IMG/VR virus record: IMGVR_UViG_3300008107_006173
Reading direction: 5' to 3' (one strand)
Origin: a virus
Taxonomy: Duplodnaviria > Caudoviricetes
Length of the DNA stretch: 64,000 nucleotides
The translations under genes were made by a program, and so were the position numbers. Every line of letters starts with the position of its first letter. Within the stretch, counting starts at the first letter, position 1. This document shows positions 6,001 to 63,661 of this stretch, in pieces. The notes beneath the pieces were generated by a model. That model was not told the origin of the DNA. It worked only from the letters and a program-made list of their open reading frames with translations, and searched no databases.

Positions 6001-6135
6001 TTACTTTTTCTTTGTTTTTTTCTTCTTTGGTTTATAGATACTGGGGTTGGGTCGCTTGATAACAGCGCCCAATGGCTGTGCTACAACTGCTATACTGCCT
6101 GATGTAGTTTCAACTATAATATCATTAATCTTCAC
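6001..6135 (-). CDS. 44-aa basic peptide with capsid-targeting-like leader (not in ORF track)
   Basis: GTG at 6135 after GGGAG; MKINDIIVE-TTSGSIAVVAQPLGAVIKRPNPSIYKPKKKKTKKK then TAA at 6001-6003; fills the gap between neighbouring genes. Confidence 0.75.
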   Translation of the reverse strand: MKINDIIVETTSGSIAVVAQPLGAVIKRPNPSIYKPKKKKTKKK

Positions 6136-7533: not shown

Positions 7534-8070
7534 TTAGTATAATCGAGAATTGACTACATCCCAATTAATAATACGCCAAATGTTATTTAAGTATTTTGCT
7601 TTGTCGTGTTCATAATCTAGGGCCCATGCATGTTCCCACCAGTCTATTAGTAGTGCTATATCATTTTTAATTTGGTGATTAGTAATGGTTTTGATCTCAC
7701 CTTTTTTACTCAAGTATACCCATCCGCTGCCTTGAATAGACATTGCTGTTTCGGTAAACTTTTCTTTGAATAAATCAAAGTCCCCAAATTTGCTTTCAAT
7801 TAATTCCTTACTTGCACCCGTAGGCTTATTGCTGCCCTTTGGTGGTTGTAGTTGCGGAAAGAAAACATTGTGAAGATATGCGCCTGCTTCGTTAAACTTA
7901 GCGTCGCCTTCGCCCGCATTATATTTTTTAACATATCCAGCAGCTAGTTTACCATAGTGGTAATCAATAGTTGCTTCGCTCATTACAGGCACAAGATCAG
8001 ATTTAGCGTAAGGAAGTTTTTCCTGTACTAGCTGCTGTTTTGCTTCTATTAAAAAATCATTAAGTTTCAT
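7534..8070 (-). CDS. sod: Fe/Mn superoxide dismutase
   Basis: LPY, DYHYGK, HNVFF, GSGWVYL and DWWEHAW; all four metal ligands present. Confidence 0.9.
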   Translation of the reverse strand: MKLNDFLIEAKQQLVQEKLPYAKSDLVPVMSEATIDYHYGKLAAGYVKKYNAGEGDAKFNEAGAYLHNVFFPQLQPPKGSNKPTGASKELIESKFGDFDLFKEKFTETAMSIQGSGWVYLSKKGEIKTITNHQIKNDIALLIDWWEHAWALDYEHDKAKYLNNIWRIINWDVVNSRLY

Positions 8071-8696
8071 TTCTTTCCGCCCTTCATGTTAGCACACCAG
8101 TGATACATCTTGCCTCTCTCACCGCCGTACTTTTTAGCTTTAGCTCGTAGATCTGTTACGCTACCAGCACAACTAGCGCCAGAGCGTTTAACACGGCCTG
8201 GACGACTCTTGCCTCTTACTTTTCCGTCAGCAAAGTTTTCTTCTACAGGCTCGCCAACTGGAATTACCTCTAGCACTTTTACTTGACTCGGGTCTAAAAT
8301 AACATAGCTGATATTGCCCTTGTCCTCGTAACGATTCTTGTAAACAAAGCCATCATAGCCTAGCTCTTTTACTTTAGCTAGTAATGCTGTACGAAGTTGT
8401 ACAGGATCCTGTAGCATTGTAATCTTTTCCATTTCTTCTTGAGAAATCTTTTTCTTGTCTCTCAAGTCAAACGCATACACTCTATCATAATGATTGCCAG
8501 CAAAGTCTTTGACAGTAAATGGATTGTGTATGTCTAATTGTACTTTGTAGATTTTACCGTTTGCGTTCTTCTTGTAGTCCATACGGTCTCTGGCAGCTTT
8601 TTCGGTGCCAAAGTGAGTCAATGGACGAAACTGTGTAATATCATCTACTGTGCCGTGATAGGCGATAATAGGTGTTACTACTTCAACTATTTTCAT
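8067..8696 (-). CDS. ADP-ribosyltransferase-like domain plus C-terminal basic module
   Basis: AYHGT, THFGT..AA, GYDGFVYKN..E..SYVILDPSQVK, then VEE-NFADG and a Lys/Arg/Cys-rich module. Confidence 0.65.
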   Translation of the reverse strand: MKIVEVVTPIIAYHGTVDDITQFRPLTHFGTEKAARDRMDYKKNANGKIYKVQLDIHNPFTVKDFAGNHYDRVYAFDLRDKKKISQEEMEKITMLQDPVQLRTALLAKVKELGYDGFVYKNRYEDKGNISYVILDPSQVKVLEVIPVGEPVEENFADGKVRGKSRPGRVKRSGASCAGSVTDLRAKAKKYGGERGKMYHWCANMKGGKK

Positions 8697-11575
8697 TTCT
8701 TTGCTAACTCTATGGTTAGATATGGATTGCCGTCGCCCCCGGTAACAGATTTTTCTCCAGCTACTTCATAGCCAGGCATCAGCTTTGTTGCTCGACGTGC
8801 CAGTGTTCTATAAAGTTTTACTCTACTCTCATCATCTGCTTTACTAGCGATAATAATACCTGTGGGGTCTTGCTCTGCTACTTCTTGCTGTAGAATGTTA
8901 GCAACTGTGCTAAACACACGAACAGCATCACCTGTGCCGGTTACGCCTGACTCTGGCTTACCGGTTTTCATATCAGTTAAATCAAAGTGTATTTCTAATT
9001 TGTTAGCATCGTCTTTTCTGCGATTGAACACTTGTACCCTGTACAATTGTCCAGCATCTGTTTGAAAGCGATATGCTCGCTTATCAGGTGTTTTTACATT
9101 TCGAACAAAATCATACGGACTATCTGCTATTTCACTTAATACAGTGAATAGTCTACCAGGCAATTTAGGTTGTTGTGAATTAAATACTTTGTCTAATGCA
9201 CGACCTGCTAGATTTTTAGCTGTATCTAATTTTGGAACTTTAACATTATCTCGTGTCAAGTAGAATGTAGTGAACAGCGAGCCTTTTAATTTTTTTACAA
9301 AATTATATCCGGGCAATGATTTACCTGCTTGTGCTGCTAACATATTATATAATTTAATACGACTTGGTTCATTGTTATCAGCAGCAAACATTAGAATTTC
9401 AGGTTGATTTTGAGCTACATAATCTTTTACGATATTAACCACAGTACCAAACACTTTGCGTGAATCACCTGTACCTGTAATATCATCTTTGGGCTGATTA
9501 TTCTCACCACGAGCCATAAAACTTACTTCAACCTTCTTATCGCCCTTAAACACGGCTTTGTAATCATTGCCTGCATCAGTAATGAAATAGTAAGCATTGT
9601 TCTTAAATTCATATGGATATGAACTGTCAAGTGCTTCAGCTACTTTACCTTCTGGTGGCTTAGTATGTATTTCTGGTTCTTCGTGACTACCTGAAATGTC
9701 CTTATACACAACGCCTAACTTATCAAATACTTTCTTCATTCGCTCCATCTCTTCAGGAGAAGCAAATGTAATAGTCATATCTGACGGGCCTACACCTAGC
9801 TCATGCTTATCGTAATTTGCTAAACTAGTATAGTGCTGCCCTAGCTTGTAAAAATCCATGTCGTCTGACTTGTCAATTACTAGAGTATTTTGCGGAGCAG
9901 TTAATAGCGAATGTTGATAGCCTGATGGGTCTGGTTCAACTGCGGTCGATCTACCTGCTTCACCCATGTGCTTAAAGTATTGTACTTCTCGTTCACGATT
10001 TTCTGCGCCGGACTTGCTAGGATATGTACCTAGGTTCTTGCCCTTTTTACTCAGCAGTCTGTAACCGCCTTTTACTTTGCGAATTGTTTCTTCAACATCT
10101 GCACCTAGATATTTGTCTAATGTTGCTTTAACATCTTCAATGTTACCCACATGCCCTTTGTATTGAACGCCAATACCATTTTTTTCTTTCCAACTGTTTA
10201 GATACTTAGGATAGTCATCAATTAAAATATTAGGTGTGCCATCTGGCTGTGTAGCGAACTGTGCCTTGTCGCCAGTGAAATGCATACCTTTAGGTTGAAT
10301 GTTTAAATATTTCTTTACCCATGCTGCCTTATACTTTGCACTACCTTCACGGTCATACTTTAGTGGCGAACTTAAAATGTACCAATCGCCATTGGTCATT
10401 TTATTAACCATAGCAATTAGTTGGTCAGCCTGCTCATACTTAGGTAATTTGTAAAAGAAGTCAGTGCCAGCAAATGATGCCATTGTATCTTCCATGTCCT
10501 GTAATGCAAGTTCTCTAGGCTCTGCATGACCTGTGACTGCGGTAACGCCGGCATAGAAGTTAGCAATTACACCATCCATATCTACATATACCTTAGGCTT
10601 GCTTTGTACATCTTCGTTGCGAATTCCTTTACTACGACTTCCGCCACCTTTACGAATGTCATTTAATTCATCGTAGGCTGCAACAACAGTATTCAATGTA
10701 TTAGAAAATTGTTTTACAGTTTGTGCTGCTCTACGAAATGCGCCACCATGTTCTACTTCTAAATCTTTTGCTAGTGCTTCTGCTTCTCTGCGGGCCTTAT
10801 TCCGTAACCCAGCAAGACTATAGCGACCAGCGCCGCCAATTACTAACACTTCAGTGTTATCCATCGGTGCTTCTTTGTCTACTCGATATATAACTTTTGT
10901 TTTGTCTGTTACATCTTCTTGTGCCACAGATTTTTGTAACTGTGCTTTGCTAACCCAATCACGAGCCTGTGGTGTAATTGGAGATTTTAAAAACTTATCA
11001 ATTTGTTTTAATGGAGTATTAAAATCAGGATTTTGATCATTCGACACTTCAACAAAGTTTGGAGCAAATACATCAGCTAAACTATTTTTATTTTGTTGTA
11101 CTTGTTTATGCGACTGAACAACAATGTCTGTAGGTACTTTTCTATCGCGTAATAGGTTACGCTGTAATGCAGTCTTTAAACTAGTGTTAACAAACACCAT
11201 CATTGCTTGATAACCAATGGCTTCTAATTCTACTTTTAGTTTAGCCATTTTGTTAACATCTTTAGCAGTACCATCAATGATTAATCCTAGTCGACCGTCT
11301 AAATAAATGTCTTGTTTTTTGTTTGTGATTTCTTTAGCACGCTGACGTGCTACATCACGCTGTGGCTGTTCTTCAGGCGGCATTTCAAAACTTAAATCAC
11401 GCTTACGCATTAGGTATTCAAATGCATCATCGCTGTTTAAGACTTTAAGGCCTCTACTAATCAACCCAAGCTCATTCGCAACATAGCTTTTGCCGCTGCC
11501 TGGACCGCCTGCAAAAAATATTACTTTAAAAATTCCAGGGTCTTTTGGCCCTTCTTGTAAATCTATAAATCTCAT
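8693..11575 (-). CDS. 960-aa multi-module protein: P-loop kinase, HAD 5'(3')-nucleotidase-like domain, duplicated C-terminal domain
   Basis: GGPGSGKS; YVDMDGV...ILIDDY; two copies of TDAG..Y...TGTGD...VF.TV.NI...SR.KLY...PGY. Confidence 0.8.
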   Translation of the reverse strand: MRFIDLQEGPKDPGIFKVIFFAGGPGSGKSYVANELGLISRGLKVLNSDDAFEYLMRKRDLSFEMPPEEQPQRDVARQRAKEITNKKQDIYLDGRLGLIIDGTAKDVNKMAKLKVELEAIGYQAMMVFVNTSLKTALQRNLLRDRKVPTDIVVQSHKQVQQNKNSLADVFAPNFVEVSNDQNPDFNTPLKQIDKFLKSPITPQARDWVSKAQLQKSVAQEDVTDKTKVIYRVDKEAPMDNTEVLVIGGAGRYSLAGLRNKARREAEALAKDLEVEHGGAFRRAAQTVKQFSNTLNTVVAAYDELNDIRKGGGSRSKGIRNEDVQSKPKVYVDMDGVIANFYAGVTAVTGHAEPRELALQDMEDTMASFAGTDFFYKLPKYEQADQLIAMVNKMTNGDWYILSSPLKYDREGSAKYKAAWVKKYLNIQPKGMHFTGDKAQFATQPDGTPNILIDDYPKYLNSWKEKNGIGVQYKGHVGNIEDVKATLDKYLGADVEETIRKVKGGYRLLSKKGKNLGTYPSKSGAENREREVQYFKHMGEAGRSTAVEPDPSGYQHSLLTAPQNTLVIDKSDDMDFYKLGQHYTSLANYDKHELGVGPSDMTITFASPEEMERMKKVFDKLGVVYKDISGSHEEPEIHTKPPEGKVAEALDSSYPYEFKNNAYYFITDAGNDYKAVFKGDKKVEVSFMARGENNQPKDDITGTGDSRKVFGTVVNIVKDYVAQNQPEILMFAADNNEPSRIKLYNMLAAQAGKSLPGYNFVKKLKGSLFTTFYLTRDNVKVPKLDTAKNLAGRALDKVFNSQQPKLPGRLFTVLSEIADSPYDFVRNVKTPDKRAYRFQTDAGQLYRVQVFNRRKDDANKLEIHFDLTDMKTGKPESGVTGTGDAVRVFSTVANILQQEVAEQDPTGIIIASKADDESRVKLYRTLARRATKLMPGYEVAGEKSVTGGDGNPYLTIELAKK

Positions 11576-14194
11576 TTACATCGCCTTTGGGTTAAACTGA
11601 TATAACATTTCCTGTGGTTTATCTGTGGTGATAATAGCTGGATTTTTCTTATAAGCACTGATTCGTAACAAGTCCTCACCACTACCTACAACTATAACAG
11701 GCTTTGCTTCAGCACCAAAAATTGTGCCGAATACTTTATTACCAAGCTCTGTTCTAGTTTTTGGATCTAAGTTTGCAGAGTTTGCTAATGTTACAAAGTT
11801 GCTAATGTTTAAAGATTGCTGTGATGCTAATGCTTGATCCATTAATGGTTTCATTTGTTCAAAGCTATTAATGATATTAAGCATTTGTTCTCTGCTTGGT
11901 AGTCGACCTGTTTCACCAAAGCGGCCGCCGCCGCTGCCTTTCTTCTCACCGATAGCTGCTTTAACTTCTACTGGTTCGCCTGCAACAGTAACATCACCTT
12001 TACCTGCAATGCTAATTTCTTTGCTTAAAATTGCCAGTGCATGTTCTAATGGACCTTTCATTAGTTTGCCTACACCAAATGACTTCATGTGATCTAGAAC
12101 TTTTCTATTGATTGGGTCGCCAAAGGTAAACTGATCCACAGTATAGATACCTGGGCTGATTAATATTGATGCGTCAATTACTTTGTCGTTAGCCAAGTTA
12201 TCAGCAAGTTTTGCCTTCTCTTGGTATGTAATTGGCGCATTTGAAAGAGCTTGTGCAATGTCTACTACCCAGTCTTTACCATACTCACCTTTAAGAACGT
12301 CTGGTAGCACAGCACTGATGCGATCTGTTACATTATTTTTATTTAAGATTGTGTAGATCTTATCTAAAAGATCTGCATTCTTTTTAGCAATTTCCGCATC
12401 TTGTGGTGCAGTATCAATACTGTTAACAGCTTGAAGAATTTCTTTTTTAGCAGCATCGAGACTGCCGTACTCATTTAACTTAGCTTCATGCAAATTAATT
12501 TGCTTTTGCAGCGACGGGTGCATGTCCTTAACATATTTGCGAAGTATAGGTCGTAAGCAGGCTTTATCACCCTGTGATGCTCGAACCTGTCTAAAATCTT
12601 TAATCATTCTAGGATCAGGAATAGCAAAGAATGCATCCATTTGTCCCTTGATGTCGTTAGCAGCAAAATGTCTACTTAACAACCTGTTAATGACTTTTAC
12701 AGGACTATTGTCTGGTACTGCATCTTGCAGGATACTTTCATTAATGCTTTCACTCTTTTTACCCCAGTTCTTAGCACCTTTCTTACGGCACTGAACTAGA
12801 GCACCTGAAGCATACGCACTTGGCCATACTTTATAGCGTGACTTAACTTTGTGATAGCAAGCGTCTTGTTTTTCTTGCAACTGTGATTCGTGAACAATGT
12901 TGCCGCCGCAACTAGGACAGATATTAAACGGAATGTTTGTATCTTCTGCTACGCTTTCCTTCTTGGTAGCAACATTTTTTGCTGCGCCTTTACGTTCTGG
13001 ATTTGGATCCTCTCTACGCTTGCGACGAGCAGCACTAGCACGCCCATCCTTGCCTAATGCGTGCGCTTTGCTTTGTGGTAAACATTTGGGTTTGCCTTCG
13101 CTATCACTACCTCTAGCACAGTCGCCTTTAATCTTGCCGTCGGGCCCAAAACGAACCCACTTGTCTTTGAACCATTGTCGTAGATTCTCATCTAATGATC
13201 CTGATTCATTAACTAGATCATTATACATTTTTGCTAGCTCTTTAGCGTCTACACCTTCGTAACTTCTTGCAATGCGGGCAGCATAATATTCTACGCTGTG
13301 ATTTCGAGGTTCTTGTTTTCTATCTAATACACCAACAAGGGCCTTTAGAGCAGCACTATACCGGCCGCGTCTTAATAAATGCCTACCAAAAGTATCATCT
13401 TCACTTACACTCGAGCTGCTTGTTTCTTGCCCGGCTTGTCTTGCGTTACGACCAGCGCAATGTGCTTTTTGACTAAAACCTTTTGGATTTGAACAATCAA
13501 TTGACTTTTTATATTTCTTAGACCACGCTTCATCAAGTTTTTCCTTGTCCACTGTAGACAGTATTTCTAACTGTTCTTCCAGTGACAAATTTTCAAATTC
13601 GTTTAATTTGTTTAATCTAGGATTTGGTTCTACTGAACTATTCATAGGATTAAAATTCCATACGCCTTGTGCAGCGGATTGGCCTTTTGCAAAACTGCCT
13701 GTTACAGCGTTTTTAATATCTTTAGCTATTCCGCCAACGGTTGTTTTATCTTGCTTGTCTGCTGCACCTGCATCAGCTGCCTTTGGTTTTCTAATAATCA
13801 ATTTATCTTTTTTGTCTGCCACAGTATATTCACCCCGCGGGTCTTGCATTACAACAGCGTCAACATTTGGTTTCTTTCCTACAGGAGAAACAACCACACC
13901 CTGGTCTTCACCGTTGCGGTTAGTAACTACAGCACCCATTGGTGCTTTAGTTGCAGGAATCACCATTAGATCATCATCGTCGTCATCAGGTTTTTGCGCT
14001 TGAGTAGATTTTTTACTAGGTGACGGTGATGATGCACTAGAAGGACTAGGCGACGATCCGGATGAGGTGGGGCTCACTGATCCTTTTGCTGTAATTGAAC
14101 CAGAGGTTTGACCGCTAACAGGTGTAGGTGGACCTGAATCTTTACCATATTCTAATAAAAAGTTTTCTAGGGTTCTGATGTTTTCAAATTTCAT
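11576..14194 (-). CDS. 872-aa multi-module protein ending in a PD-(D/E)xK-like domain
   Basis: Ser/Pro-rich N-terminus, several short basic Cys-containing modules, CPSCG knuckle, KGDVTVAGEPVEVKA. Confidence 0.7.
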   Translation of the reverse strand: MKFENIRTLENFLLEYGKDSGPPTPVSGQTSGSITAKGSVSPTSSGSSPSPSSASSPSPSKKSTQAQKPDDDDDDLMVIPATKAPMGAVVTNRNGEDQGVVVSPVGKKPNVDAVVMQDPRGEYTVADKKDKLIIRKPKAADAGAADKQDKTTVGGIAKDIKNAVTGSFAKGQSAAQGVWNFNPMNSSVEPNPRLNKLNEFENLSLEEQLEILSTVDKEKLDEAWSKKYKKSIDCSNPKGFSQKAHCAGRNARQAGQETSSSSVSEDDTFGRHLLRRGRYSAALKALVGVLDRKQEPRNHSVEYYAARIARSYEGVDAKELAKMYNDLVNESGSLDENLRQWFKDKWVRFGPDGKIKGDCARGSDSEGKPKCLPQSKAHALGKDGRASAARRKRREDPNPERKGAAKNVATKKESVAEDTNIPFNICPSCGGNIVHESQLQEKQDACYHKVKSRYKVWPSAYASGALVQCRKKGAKNWGKKSESINESILQDAVPDNSPVKVINRLLSRHFAANDIKGQMDAFFAIPDPRMIKDFRQVRASQGDKACLRPILRKYVKDMHPSLQKQINLHEAKLNEYGSLDAAKKEILQAVNSIDTAPQDAEIAKKNADLLDKIYTILNKNNVTDRISAVLPDVLKGEYGKDWVVDIAQALSNAPITYQEKAKLADNLANDKVIDASILISPGIYTVDQFTFGDPINRKVLDHMKSFGVGKLMKGPLEHALAILSKEISIAGKGDVTVAGEPVEVKAAIGEKKGSGGGRFGETGRLPSREQMLNIINSFEQMKPLMDQALASQQSLNISNFVTLANSANLDPKTRTELGNKVFGTIFGAEAKPVIVVGSGEDLLRISAYKKNPAIITTDKPQEMLYQFNPKAM

Positions 14195-14900
14195 TTGCGT
14201 GTTCCAGGCTTAATTGTTGACTTACATAAATTTTCTTAAATTTAGTTAGCAGTTCTAAGAATCCTGCATTTCGTAAAGTTTTAAAAACTAAATTTTCTGT
14301 ACCAAACTCACCGTGTTTGCTAAGACCTTCTTTACGATCTTCTTTGATCTTTTCCCAAATTTTATTAACAGCATCTATATCGCGCTTACGAATAGCATCG
14401 CTGATAGAGTTTACATAACTCTTAGCTTTTGACTGCACATCACTGTCGTCAATCTTTGCTTCTACCTTCTTTGGCTTTGACAACCACTTATGATGCATGA
14501 TACTAAAAATACCCGCACTAGCATGTGGTTGATCGCTGAACTGGACATATAATTCAACAGGCTGTTTTTTAATAACAATTTCGTGTTGACTGTTGAAGAT
14601 AGTTTTCTTAGCATCAAAAAAGTTACGCATAAGAGCTTGTTTATCGCTGTCTACTTCAACTACAATATGAAGATCAATATCACTTTTTAATGTATAAGTA
14701 AATGCTGCATTACTACCTGATACAGTAATATCTACAACTTTTAAATCTTCAACGTCTAGGAAATCAATAAAAAAGTTTGCAATCTTTGAAAGCCTTTCTG
14801 AAACTTCAGGCTTTAGCATATAATTTTCCCAAAGAGAAGGATTGAGTTTGTCGTGAAACTCGATGGCTCCCATTACTCCCTTTAGTTCGCTAATTTTCAT
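14184..14900 (-). CDS. Pol-beta superfamily nucleotidyltransferase
   Basis: SGSNA...SDIDLHIV signature (GS...DxD) with a later VELY. Confidence 0.85.
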   Translation of the reverse strand: MKISELKGVMGAIEFHDKLNPSLWENYMLKPEVSERLSKIANFFIDFLDVEDLKVVDITVSGSNAAFTYTLKSDIDLHIVVEVDSDKQALMRNFFDAKKTIFNSQHEIVIKKQPVELYVQFSDQPHASAGIFSIMHHKWLSKPKKVEAKIDDSDVQSKAKSYVNSISDAIRKRDIDAVNKIWEKIKEDRKEGLSKHGEFGTENLVFKTLRNAGFLELLTKFKKIYVSQQLSLEHANEI

Positions 14901-34593: not shown

Positions 34594-34830
34594 TTAACAT
34601 TCCCAGTCATCTTCATCGCCATCTTCTTCTAATAGAAGATCAAAATGGCTTACTACTGCTGTCTTTAACACGCTGTCATATTCATTAACAAATGATTCAA
34701 CATCACTGATGTCTACATTATCGTCAAATAGTCTAACAAGTGTTTCAGCAGCCTGTAGTCTTTCTTTTCTTGGGATAAAGGATTTAACCGAATCCCAAAC
34801 TTCTCCTAGAAGTACTACTTCAGGACTCAT
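34594..34830 (-). CDS. Hypothetical protein
   Basis: ATG at 34830 overlapping the uvsX 3' end (MSPEVVLLGEVW...). Confidence 0.65.
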   Translation of the reverse strand: MSPEVVLLGEVWDSVKSFIPRKERLQAAETLVRLFDDNVDISDVESFVNEYDSVLKTAVVSHFDLLLEEDGDEDDWEC

Positions 34831-35926
34831 CTGCATATTCCTCCGTAGTTGGCTCAAAATCAGCGGGATCAGCGTCTGCTACAGTTGTAGTATTAGCGAC
34901 TGGATTTTGACCCCACTCGTCAATAATTACCTGCAACTTATTGTTGGTCCAACCTTTTCTGAACTCCTTGATGATTTCACCAGTAACAGGTGAAGTATAC
35001 GCAAGTCGATTGCCTTCCTTAACAAGAATACCTTTTGCTTCAAACATGTCCAATAGGCCACTATAAGGATTCATACCTGAGTCATAAGGAATCTTAATTT
35101 GAACGCTTTCAAACGGCTTGCTATAGCGAGTTTTCATTACCTTACAGGCACTACGAATACCACGCACTTCGCTAATCTTATTACCGTCATCATCTTCCTT
35201 GAGCTTGAGCTTACGCATAGCAACTACAATTGAACTAGCGTAAATAAAGCCCTGTCCACCACTGATCTTGTCATCTGGATCAAACATATCCTGACTTGCA
35301 TAAGTGTGGTTTGTTGCAACTAGTCCAATTGGATAAGGTGCAATCATGTTTACAGTATTACGAACCAAGGCTGTAAGAGCCTTTGGCTTTCTACCCATAT
35401 CACCCTTCATGTCACCCTTCTGGAACTGATCAACATCAGTTGGAGTAAGCAACATGCCGAGACTGTCAATTACGAACAGTAATTTGGGCATTTCTTCATA
35501 CTTCAGTGAGCCATAATTAACTTTGTAGTCTTTCATAAAGTCTGAGATGGCTTTGGCCACATCGTCAATCATGCTAACTGAAATACGCAACAGCTTTTCG
35601 GAACTAGTATCAACGTCTAGTGCCTTGAGCCATTCTTCATCAAGTGCGTTCTCGGAGTCAAAAAGAACAACCTGACAGCCCATCTTTTGAGCGTTCTTCA
35701 CAATATTGCCGGAGCAAATAAAGCTCTTACCGGAGCCTGATTCACCTGCAAACACACATACCTTACCTAGCGGAATACCCTTGTTAAAGTCTCCGCTGAT
35801 AAGATAGTTTAGAGTATGGTTACCTGTGCTGATCCAATCAACTGGATCATGGAAACCAGCACTGATACCCGTAATGTTTTTAGTTAGACCAGTACGAAAC
35901 TTGGTCAGATCAAAAGGTTTCTGCAT
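34820..35926 (-). CDS. uvsX: RecA-like recombinase
   Basis: GESGSGKS, FDSENA, IDSLGML, ATNHTY, ISGGQGFIYASS. Confidence 0.95.
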   Translation of the reverse strand: MQKPFDLTKFRTGLTKNITGISAGFHDPVDWISTGNHTLNYLISGDFNKGIPLGKVCVFAGESGSGKSFICSGNIVKNAQKMGCQVVLFDSENALDEEWLKALDVDTSSEKLLRISVSMIDDVAKAISDFMKDYKVNYGSLKYEEMPKLLFVIDSLGMLLTPTDVDQFQKGDMKGDMGRKPKALTALVRNTVNMIAPYPIGLVATNHTYASQDMFDPDDKISGGQGFIYASSIVVAMRKLKLKEDDDGNKISEVRGIRSACKVMKTRYSKPFESVQIKIPYDSGMNPYSGLLDMFEAKGILVKEGNRLAYTSPVTGEIIKEFRKGWTNNKLQVIIDEWGQNPVANTTTVADADPADFEPTTEEYADES

Positions 35927-42340: not shown

Positions 42341-43033
42341 TTAGTTCCTTCTAGCACTCTGACTAATCACATCAACTTCTTTGTTCTCAATTCCCTTGCC
42401 CATATTGGCAGTATTATGAATTGTATCCCAAAGTGGCTTTAGATCCTCTCCCATCAATTCATCCTTGTTTGGATAATTGCGGAAATAATCTGCGCCCTTT
42501 TCTGCTTTAATCTTTGCTAGCTCATCTAAAAACTTTTTGTTAAATTCTTCACCAAAGAAAGGACCGTCTTTGTAGAGGTCTGGATTCTGCATTCCATAAT
42601 GTTCTTGATCTTCGTTAGCAAGTACACTTTCCTCTTGCTTTGGTGCGCGGTCTTTATTAAATTCTGTACGCTCTTCAGCATTTTCACTTTCTAATCTACG
42701 AGGATCTTTTACACCATAAACAAGAACACGCTCATGTGGTAAGCCTAAATTAACTGCTAACCATACTTCTAAAATTCTTTCATTAACAGGATACTTGAGA
42801 ACTACATCTGTTGCACAAACTTCTGAAACAAACTTAACACCTTTAGCACGAACAAATTCCATTGGATTTTCTTCGATTGGTCTGCGCTTCCAAGCAGCAG
42901 CACTTACAAGGCCGTATTTCTGTAGTGCATTTTCAAGTTGAGTCATTTGCTCGGCGCCGCAGTTAGCAGCGAACTTAACTCTATATGCGTATTCTTTTTT
43001 GAAGCTTTCAGCGATGAATTCTTTTAGTTGCAT
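42341..43033 (-). CDS. Late head-associated protein
   Basis: Starts MQLKEFIAE-S; late box at 43056-43063. Confidence 0.7.
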   Translation of the reverse strand: MQLKEFIAESFKKEYAYRVKFAANCGAEQMTQLENALQKYGLVSAAAWKRRPIEENPMEFVRAKGVKFVSEVCATDVVLKYPVNERILEVWLAVNLGLPHERVLVYGVKDPRRLESENAEERTEFNKDRAPKQEESVLANEDQEHYGMQNPDLYKDGPFFGEEFNKKFLDELAKIKAEKGADYFRNYPNKDELMGEDLKPLWDTIHNTANMGKGIENKEVDVISQSARRN

Positions 43034-62266: not shown

Positions 62267-63661
62267 TTATTGTCCTTGTGTTACTGTGATTGCGCCACAA
62301 CCACCTGCGGTTGCACAACTGTGAGTTATAGAATAGAAGTTTTGTGTAGTGCCACTTTGTGTTAGGCTAATACTTGTTGGATTACCTGACAAGTTAATTA
62401 AAGCCATATGGCCTGCACTTCCTTCTTGAAGAACGGTAACAGATTTGCTACCGCCGGTTAATGCTAAATCCAGATAATGATTGCCATTATCTTTCTGCTG
62501 GATATTTAGCGTATTGTTATTATTTGCCACTGTAGCAAAGATTCCTTTTGCACCACCAGTGCCAGTTTGACTTAGTGTTAAACTGTTACTACTACCATTA
62601 ACTGCTAAATCCATATAATTGGTTACTGCATTACTTGTGCCGCTTTGTGTAGCGTTCACTGTATTGTTGTTACCGCTACTGTAATATTTGAAATAGTTTT
62701 CTCTAGTACCACTTTGCGTTACAGTGATGCTATTACTAGAACCAATCTGTTCAATGATAACTTTAGAATCTTTTACTGTTCTACTTGTAAAGGTATTAAC
62801 TTTGTTTGTGTTAACAGTATTAGCGTTAAATGAATCTCCACTACCTCCACAGCAATATGTTGGACCTGTTGGCCCACTAGGTGGGGGCGGCGCAGTACTA
62901 CCAGGATTTGGCTCAACTGATGTAAACTCTTGTCCGTTAAGCTGAGTAGTACCTATGATTTCATCAATGAAAAGAATAGGGCTTAGTGCTGTGTCGCCTA
63001 AGTTAAAAGATATAAATGCTAGATCGTAAGTGCCTGTAACGGTTACTGTAATAACAATCTGCTGCCAACCAGTTGAACCATAACTACCAGTTGAATAGTT
63101 ACCAGTTCCAGGATTTGTAAAACCTAGCAATGCATATTTTTGTTGTCCGTTAACTGTAACAGGTCCTGCAGGCCCAGTAACTACAACCATTGAACCATCG
63201 TTATATGGAGTGTAGTCTGTGCTTATGTAGTTCCATGCATAGGTATAAGTTTTGCCGGCTTCTAAAACTACACTACGCTTTGCAAAAGAAGCGTTAGTTG
63301 GATACATGTTACCATTTGCATAAATGGTATTTTTAATTGAAGTTGTTTCCGAACTGGTAAAGCCAAGTGTTGACATTGAAGAGTCAAATGATGGAGAACC
63401 GCCGCCGGCTTGAATAGCTAACATGTATGTGCCGTATGGCGTGACGGTCCAACACTTGCCACCACCTGGACAAAAATTAGACACACCTGTGGTAACTTGT
63501 GCGCCCGAACCGTTATCACTCCAGCCGCCGGTCTTTACTGTGGTGCTACCATTACTAACAGTCCAGTTAGTATAGTTACCATTTTCAAAACCATAGTTAG
63601 CTTCTTGCGCTGCCACTGGCGCACTAATGAGTAATAATAGTGCTGCTAAAATCTTTCTCAT
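62267..63661 (-). CDS. Exported protein with beta-sandwich N-domain and curlin-like repeats
   Basis: Signal peptide, Pro-rich linker, repeated Q.G..N....Q units. Confidence 0.8.
   Translation of the reverse strand: MRKILAALLLLISAPVAAQEANYGFENGNYTNWTVSNGSTTVKTGGWSDNGSGAQVTTGVSNFCPGGGKCWTVTPYGTYMLAIQAGGGSPSFDSSMSTLGFTSSETTSIKNTIYANGNMYPTNASFAKRSVVLEAGKTYTYAWNYISTDYTPYNDGSMVVVTGPAGPVTVNGQQKYALLGFTNPGTGNYSTGSYGSTGWQQIVITVTVTGTYDLAFISFNLGDTALSPILFIDEIIGTTQLNGQEFTSVEPNPGSTAPPPPSGPTGPTYCCGGSGDSFNANTVNTNKVNTFTSRTVKDSKVIIEQIGSSNSITVTQSGTRENYFKYYSSGNNNTVNATQSGTSNAVTNYMDLAVNGSSNSLTLSQTGTGGAKGIFATVANNNNTLNIQQKDNGNHYLDLALTGGSKSVTVLQEGSAGHMALINLSGNPTSISLTQSGTTQNFYSITHSCATAGGCGAITVTQGQ

Follow-up and report, generated by a model that had tools for sequence, protein, structure and literature searches.

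A shuffled string of enzyme modules with glutamate-ended joints in a PA5oct-like jumbo phage: candidate head cargo for a T4-type prohead protease

The DNA considered here, a viral sequence of 64,000 nucleotides (IMG/VR record IMGVR_UViG_3300008107_006173; the whole stretch is called the window below), carries on its minus strand, at positions 8693-11575, a single intact open reading frame (ORF) which starts with ATG, is free of stops and codes for a protein of 960 residues; since the identical protein is encoded by six independent freshwater metagenome contigs, an assembly artefact can be excluded. The window is syntenic with the Pseudomonas jumbo phage PA5oct, with which it shares the gene order sheath, tube, terminase, gp32, UvsX, primase and DnaB, the two terminases being 57% identical; near-identical DNA was sought in cultured phages, and none was found. 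The 960-residue protein is composed of a short leader and seven modules, and a Glu residue stands at each candidate junction, namely E8, E220, E321, E496, E539, E647 and E815 (Table 1). The anatomy of this protein, the rule obeyed by its joints and the fate that they suggest for it in the phage head are the focus of the present paper.

Table 1. The 960-residue protein, its parts and the adjoining genes (positions in the window)
Feature	Coordinates	Strand	Remarks
N-terminal leader, residues 1-8 (MRFIDLQE)	11552..11575	(-)	candidate capsid-targeting sequence ending L-Q-E
P-loop kinase module (Zeta_toxin / AAA_33 type), residues 9-220	10916..11551	(-)	C-terminal end VAQE-220
Helical module, residues 221-321	10613..10915	(-)	without family match; C-terminal end IRNE-321
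HAD-superfamily 5'(3')-deoxyribonucleotidase-like module, residues 322-496	10088..10612	(-)	C-terminal end VEE-496
Basic mini-module of 43 residues, residues 497-539 (TIRKV.GGYR...QYFKH)	9959..10087	(-)	C-terminal end MGE-539
Alpha/beta module, residues 540-647, tail Pro/Glu-rich	9635..9958	(-)	without family match; C-terminal end VAE-647
DUF6934 copy A (GNAT-like fold), residues 648-815	9131..9634	(-)	PF22028; first residues ALDSSYPY; C-terminal end LSE-815
DUF6934 copy B (GNAT-like fold), residues 816-960, C-terminal module	8696..9130	(-)	AlphaFold2 and Foldseek
Upstream neighbour, 872 residues, second modular cargo-type protein	11576..14194	(-)	abuts the start of the 960-residue protein gene
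Downstream neighbour, 209 residues, stand-alone ART-PolyVal ADP-ribosyltransferase, basic tail	8067..8696	(-)	PF18760, E 1.3e-11
Fe/Mn superoxide dismutase	7534..8070	(-)	Pfam Sod_Fe_C, E 3e-25

The kinase module is matched at residues 17-179 by Pfam PF06414 (Zeta_toxin; E 2.8e-11) and PF13671 (AAA_33; E 6.7e-10) and, among the PHROGs, by phrog_12810 (E 3.9e-44) as well as by phrog_505, annotated 'polynucleotide kinase'; a sequence relative of solved structure was searched for, and none was found. The HAD nucleotidase (approximately residues 325-482) gives a strong match to phrog_2643 (E 2.7e-24), a weak one to Pfam NT5C (E 0.0017) and a weak one to the solved mitochondrial and cytosolic deoxyribonucleotidases (E 2e-4); all four motifs of the NT5C-type 5'(3')-deoxyribonucleotidases (DxDxV/T, S/T, K and DD) can be recognized in it, as D332-M-D334-G-V, S402-S-P, K437 and D453-D454, and would place it in that class. 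Both the kinase and the nucleotidase look active, because these four motifs, together with the Walker A sequence GGPGSGK and other residues of the catalytic region of the kinase, are invariant in 38 relatives.

The remaining modules are less familiar. Residues 221-321 and 540-647 and the basic residues 497-539 matched no described family in Pfam and PHROGs; for the first of these AlphaFold2 (AF2) gives, with low confidence, a pair of long helices and for the mini-module three strands and one helix, and the helical module is missing from many relatives, in which residue 233 is joined straight to residue ~312. The two C-terminal modules are copies of DUF6934 sharing 35% identity. Modelled alone, copy B gives a confident structure (predicted local distance difference test score, pLDDT, 85; predicted template modelling score, pTM, 0.81), with a GNAT-like core that Foldseek matches best with the acetyltransferases SpeG and AAC(6') (E 2e-5, TM ~0.55); a TGTGD loop is conserved ahead of the first helix, and the canonical N-terminal beta1-alpha1-alpha2 part of GNAT enzymes is absent. 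A peptidase family is found neither in the whole protein nor in its parts when these are compared with Pfam and PHROGs. The initial annotation of this DNA, made from the letters alone, had called a kinase, a HAD nucleotidase, a short basic module and two diverged copies of one domain, and had placed Glu at the domain boundaries; the module calls agree with the Pfam and PHROG matches and with the breakpoints described below, and the two copies are the DUF6934 pair.

The boundaries themselves were located in two ways. In BLAST comparisons with 119 relatives from a large protein collection, the ends of homology cluster at residues 220-233, 312-326, 490-502, 536-549, 620-647 and 797-815, and the relatives form a mosaic in which modules are present, absent, duplicated or joined to other partners. 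The full-length AF2 model has a pTM of 0.29, i.e. no fixed arrangement of the domains, and its segments of low confidence (pLDDT <50; residues 1-11, 215-294, 307-324, 533-558, 635-653 and 777-818) hold six of the seven junction Glu residues, the remaining one, E496, lying in a coil at 491-497; five of the seven (E8, E321, E496, E647 and E815) are found a few residues ahead of the following module's first predicted strand. Since the breakpoints in the relatives and the low-confidence or coil segments agree with the seven Glu positions, the coincidence of module boundaries with these residues is real. The placing of Glu at domain boundaries by the initial annotation is thus borne out, as is its expectation of independent domains which are shuffled, or stand alone, in relatives and keep their xxE junctions; in the relatives these read hydrophobic-x-Glu.

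How strictly the Glu is kept was assessed by anchoring each module at its earliest conserved residues, collecting all its instances in relatives and counting the distinct upstream hexamers. With P1 denoting the junction Glu and P2 to P4 the residues preceding it, P1 is Glu in 15/15 distinct contexts of the kinase, 20/20 of the basic mini-module, 22/22 of DUF6934 copy A and 22/22 of copy B (79/79 in all), the background frequency of Glu being 6.6%; one of L, V, I, T and M occupies P3 in 76 of the 79, and P2 and P4 vary freely. Ahead of the basic mini-module P3 is V, I, L or M in 18/20 contexts, and the module is also followed, in nearly all contexts, by a hydrophobic residue, then G, D or N, then Glu; for copy B P3 is L, I or V in its 22 contexts. 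Before the ALDSSYPY with which copy A begins, the relatives carry KIDE, KVAE, LTTE, MTNE, RISE, KVNE or PVTE, the upstream partners being often unrelated. The same holds out of sample: in the family of the 872-residue neighbour Glu precedes WSxKYK in 59/60 contexts and NLRxWF in 53/53, with L, V, I or M at P3, and ART-PolyVal modules fused in relatives have [VIL]-[DE]-E-E ahead of IAYHGT. In a distant but cultured relative, the 778-residue protein of Agrobacterium phage Atu_ph07 (AUZ94865), the joints read DLNE|A, EVTE|G (before the kinase), NLTE|L and NLNE|L (before two DUF6934 modules). The pattern at module starts is far beyond chance.

Extensive shuffling of modules might suggest that the joints are DNA-level recombination linkers which allow in-frame swapping, the Glu codon being a by-product of a conserved nucleotide linker. 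This we consider very improbable: when nine orthologues are aligned by codon, the identity of synonymous codons in the 11 codons around each junction is 0.46-0.84, against a gene-wide mean over windows of 0.64 +/- 0.14, so that no excess of DNA conservation is seen at the junctions, and a conserved linker would hardly leave P2 and P4 free to vary.

A second trait of the protein concerns the places where the motif does not occur. The sequence [LIVM]-x-E is present six times in the 960 residues, five times at junctions (E8, E496, E539, E647 and E815) and once in an interior position (E901); the single instance inside modules is to be compared with ~10 expected from composition, whereas in the other proteins of the window the motif is found at ~1.2 times expectation.

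The leader, MRFIDLQE, precedes GPKDP, lies outside the kinase fold and is unstructured in the AF2 model (pLDDT 32); it is conserved as MRF-x-DL-x-E before GPNDP in 15/15 distinct contexts. In phage T4 the internal proteins are loaded into the head by a capsid-targeting sequence (CTS) of 10-20 residues which is later removed, and the protein Alt is cut at ITE-6 and LTE-619 (PMC5694885, PMC8442874, PMC3012670); the T4 CTS is MKTYQEFIAE (PMC8442874). By its length and its L-Q-E end MRFIDLQE would fit among the leaders of T4-type head cargo (~6-20 residues, ending hydrophobic-x-Glu). Leaders of the same kind are found where the modules begin a protein of their own: the stand-alone kinases of Melnitz (MKTFAELQE|G), HTVC008M (MIPFILKE|G), both T4-like phages, and the jumbo phage RsoM2USA (MTTFKEYLLE|G) have leaders of 8-10 residues ending hydrophobic-x-Glu before G, DUF6934 copy A as first module in relatives is preceded by MKLLEFFHIDE, and many relatives starting with a small basic or DUF6934 module have a leader of the form M-K/R-x-x-E/D-F/I/L followed, at its end, by hydrophobic-x-Glu. 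At the level of the window the leader pattern is enriched (12/21 versus 9/54, p 8.5e-4), a comparison that is no more than indicative, the region having been picked after looking.

Two other products of the window begin in a similar way. A 44-codon ORF with a GTG start at 6001-6135 (-) codes for a peptide that starts with VKINDIIVE, near-identical to the PA5oct leader MKINDIITE, and ends in KPKKKKTKKK; a 230-residue protein encoded at 42341-43033 (-) starts with MQLKEFIAE, close to the T4 sequence given above, and is a homologue of a PA5oct structural protein detected by electrospray ionization tandem mass spectrometry (ESI-MS/MS).

The joints and the leader can also be read in a different way, in which the 960-residue protein is packaged and injected intact as a polyvalent protein, with at most the leader removed, the Glu joints acting as flexible acidic linkers or N-caps and the domains working while tethered. 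A precedent exists in the virion RNA polymerase of phage N4, a polyvalent protein that is packaged unprocessed (PMC5512222), and the AQE and RNE joints, which do not conform to the motif, speak in its favour; nevertheless, neither a linker nor an N-cap explains the combination of Glu at P1 with L, V or I at P3 ahead of modules that start with a strand, a coil or a helix (~190 contexts), nor the avoidance of the motif inside modules, nor the fact that stand-alone versions, rather than beginning at the module, keep a short leader with the same terminal motif. Intact packaging is thus to be regarded as unlikely, even if it has the most in its favour among the alternatives discussed here.

A protease of the matching kind is present in the lineage. 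T4 gp21 and the prohead proteases of the giant phages have in common that they cleave behind the Glu of a three-residue motif (PMC5694885). A Peptidase_S77 of the T4 gp21 type is encoded in PA5oct (84079-84711; E 7e-25), beside the portal, scaffold and major capsid genes, and in 2/3 large related environmental contigs; a further contig, of 104 kb, bears both the S77 gene (E 3.7e-28) and, ~70 kb apart, an orthologue 68% identical to the 960-residue protein. In PA5oct and in the two related contigs, the first 43 residues of the major capsid protein include four conserved [LIVM]-x-E sequences, after which comes NA(T/S)AG; this N-terminus has the look of a T4-type propeptide that is cut more than once. 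A link to the virion is given by two PA5oct products annotated as structural, with ESI-MS/MS, namely a stand-alone DUF6934 protein (MHLFELFDQIE|K) and a 73-residue protein (MKINDIITE|G) whose gene lies between those of the portal and the protease.

A PA5oct product annotated 'head maturation protease', gp212, was considered as the prohead protease and rejected, being a homologue of ClpP (PF00574, E 8e-60); its gene (RefSeq NC_071039 180349-181020, L009:32350-33021), one of two with this annotation, lies near ClpX- and ClpS-like genes. Related environmental contigs abound in homologues of ClpP, with 574 matches confirmed.

The gene for the 960-residue protein belongs to a tightly packed operon that comprises a nucleotidyltransferase, the 872-residue modular protein, the 960-residue protein itself, the ART-PolyVal protein, the Fe/Mn superoxide dismutase and further small genes. 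This island, of ~10.7 kb, has on its two sides genes whose PA5oct homologues, tagged PQE65_gp247 and PQE65_gp250, are each marked ESI-MS/MS in the record. In relatives, the modules of the 960-residue protein are combined with PF18760 (ART-PolyVal), PF18765 (Polbeta), PF01909, PF02195 (ParB), PF00383 (deaminase) and GNAT domains; in the T4-like phage Melnitz the HAD nucleotidase is a stand-alone gene adjoining the kinase gene. This last arrangement, in an unrelated phage, suggests a functional pair like T4 Pnkp and, with the AAA_33 and phrog_505 'polynucleotide kinase' matches and the failure of the leader pattern alone to predict PA5oct virion proteins, lends some credit to the view that the protein is an ordinary cytoplasmic multidomain enzyme that is never packaged, e.g. 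a kinase and phosphatase serving nucleotide metabolism or the healing of nucleic-acid ends, helped by accessory acetyltransferases, its likeness to CTS-bearing and cleaved proteins being incidental. Such a view appears improbable: the gene block is flanked by homologues of virion proteins, a DUF6934 homologue is on the PA5oct virion list, the leader is conserved across four phage lineages, and the fusion of these modules to ART-PolyVal and Polbeta is typical of injected polyvalent proteins.

The explanation that we favour, with a moderate degree of confidence, is that the 960-residue protein serves a PA5oct-like jumbo myophage as polyvalent cargo of modular build, suited to the T4-type machinery of head assembly, packed into the head, cut there by the S77 protease and injected into the host. 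Its packaging and the removal of its leader are held with more confidence than every internal cut; the modular anatomy, the shuffling, the strict Glu rule, the scarcity of the motif inside modules and the occurrence of the protease family in the lineage are seen in the sequences, whereas packaging, cleavage and injection, as well as the targets of the enzymes, are inferred. According to the mechanism proposed, the protein would be made late, from one operon with other cargo-type genes, and directed by MRFIDLQE to the prohead scaffolding core; once the shell is closed, the gp21-type protease, cutting after the Glu of hydrophobic-x-Glu, would take off the leader and would also cut at VEE-496, MGE-539, VAE-647 and LSE-815; cuts at AQE-220 and RNE-321 are less certain. 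The products would be the kinase (alone or with the helical and HAD modules), the 43-residue basic peptide, the alpha/beta domain and the two GNAT-like domains; these pieces would be kept in the head until they pass, together with the DNA, into the host, where they would act early as enzymes. A single leader would in this way bring in several enzymes at equal copy number, and phages could exchange modules as wholes because each has its own cut site. As AQE-220 and RNE-321 misfit [LIVM]-x-E, residues 9-496 may stay together as one piece of 55 kDa; a linked kinase-helical-HAD arrangement is, we presume, reminiscent of kinase-phosphatase enzymes such as T4 Pnkp.

Some observations do not sit easily with packaging and cleavage and have to be set against them. 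At E220 (VAQE) and E321 (IRNE) it is P4 that is hydrophobic instead of P3; motif depletion, marked in the 960-residue protein, is weak across the protein family (ratio 0.91, median 0.75); and the stand-alone HAD gene of Melnitz is without a leader. A simple leader pattern gives no discrimination in PA5oct, where it is found in 14/45 proteins positive by mass spectrometry (MS) and in 12/48 MS-negative ones (p 0.34), and the PA5oct virion list includes obvious non-structural metabolic enzymes. Phylogenetic independence does not hold for all of the contexts counted as distinct, and the Glu could belong to each module itself as its conserved first residue, e.g. a helix N-cap in the small basic modules. 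Finally, Pfam and PHROG scans of 29 of the ~70 window ORFs of at least 100 residues found neither S77 nor the major capsid protein, and no search directed at either was made. The prohead-protease polyprotein put forward in the initial annotation has gained from the shuffling, the T4-like leader, the presence of S77 in the lineage, the motif depletion and the DUF6934 protein listed for the PA5oct virion, and has lost ground at the two joints that are off motif.

With regard to known systems, the closest parallel in processing is offered by the T4 internal proteins IPI-III and Alt, with which the 960-residue protein shares a short leader ending hydrophobic-x-Glu, a protease of the gp21 (S77) family in the lineage, a hypervariable gene set and a cargo made up of enzymes and small basic proteins; the ADP-ribosyltransferase of the adjoining gene recalls Alt. 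T4 cargo, however, consists of separate genes whose products are cut once or twice at their ends, whereas here up to seven unrelated modules follow one leader and the cuts would be internal; no sequence homology links the internal proteins of T4, or its Alt, to the 960-residue protein.

In architecture, the resemblance is to the polyvalent proteins described by Iyer, Burroughs, Anand, de Souza and Aravind in 2017 (PMC5512222), in which several unrelated effector domains occur in one polypeptide that is virion-linked and predicted to be injected, with a repertoire of zeta-toxin-like kinase, ART-PolyVal, Polbeta nucleotidyltransferase and GNAT domains. Judged by its domain content, the 960-residue protein would qualify as one of them: its domains are unrelated and of effector type, and they belong to a shared repertoire recombined in many architectures. 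The release of polyvalent domains was ascribed by those authors to an embedded MPTase or, rarely, to a C-terminal assemblin-like peptidase (PMC5512222; also PMC7824862, PMC9503650), an embedded peptidase being common in such proteins although not a required part; the 960-residue protein, on the contrary, has no peptidase and carries candidate sites for a protease acting in trans together with a CTS-like leader. The analogy with the polyproteins of eukaryotic viruses, drawn in the initial annotation, is not new, since the polyvalent proteins with embedded peptidases have already been likened to RNA-virus polyproteins (Iyer et al. 2017, PMC5512222).

A third group of systems, the giant phages phiKZ, 201phi2-1 and SPN3US studied by Thomas, Black and colleagues (PMC5694885, PMC10052503), has a protease of the same superfamily which recognizes a three-residue motif with Glu, and many of their inner-head ejection proteins are substrates, with several sites per protein; there the motif is A/S/G-x-E and the cuts mainly remove or fragment long propeptides, and a string of enzymes freed from one precursor is not described in the literature searched. 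The same search met no paper in which CTS leaders and polyvalent proteins are brought together, nor one on polyproteins of enzymes set free by a prohead protease. What appears to be new here is therefore the combination of a polyvalent architecture with the processing of T4 internal proteins, each part being already known.

Whether the case is general is a separate question. That jumbo phages of the T4 superfamily use a grammar of leader and [LIVM]-x-Glu joints for loading into the prohead single precursors in which unrelated enzymes and small basic peptides are strung together, to be freed by a trans-acting S77 protease, and that this is a true polyprotein strategy of a DNA phage, widespread in view of the thousands of relatives, is a proposal on which we find the evidence evenly balanced. 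If the joints were real cleavage sites, the head content of jumbo phages, i.e. the first proteins that the host cell meets, would become readable from the genome through leaders and hydrophobic-x-Glu joints, and sets of injected effectors would be predictable from sequence alone; polyvalent proteins without embedded peptidases would gain a processing mechanism, and the quick change of the injected arsenal would be explained by the swapping of modules with built-in cut sites. A single construct that copies this natural design could, moreover, serve to bring several foreign proteins into capsids of the T4 type.

The neighbouring genes show related features. The 872-residue protein upstream begins with an acidic part rich in Ser and Pro, continues with a number of small basic Cys/Lys modules (one of them DUF5872) and ends in a C-terminal part of 380 residues without assignment; its small modules occur in >2,400 proteins and in 368 records of cultured phages, nearly all of them T4-like cyanophages, as exemplified by Syn9 gp114 and P-SSM2_123 within the gp13-gp17 late cluster, on whose presence in the virion no statement was found in the cyanophage proteomics literature. 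On the other side, the start of the ART-PolyVal gene overlaps the stop of the 960-residue protein gene. The ART-PolyVal protein (8067-8696, -) and the nucleotidyltransferase (14184-14900, -) are encoded by separate small genes, with five-residue starts MKIVE and MKISE, respectively; in relatives, the nucleotidyltransferase and ART modules are fused into single Polbeta-ART-DUF6934 proteins of 600-950 residues. The superoxide dismutase has a 17-residue N-terminal extension (MKLNDFLIE...LVQE) ahead of the normal start of such enzymes, and its PA5oct homologue, gp223, annotated as hypothetical, is flagged ESI-MS/MS; a virion-borne superoxide dismutase is possible.

Two further observations concern genes elsewhere in the window. 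The UvsX-like recombinase is encoded by one ORF at 34820-35926 (-), whereas in PA5oct (L008 25844-28844) it is divided between two genes, corresponding to residues 1-64 and 65-358, with a hypothetical gene of 477 residues between them, as if an inserted element had split the gene in PA5oct. At 62267-63661 (-) a protein of 464 residues is encoded which has a signal-peptide-like N-terminus and matches the curlin repeat (PF07012, E 8e-8), a feature unusual for a phage.

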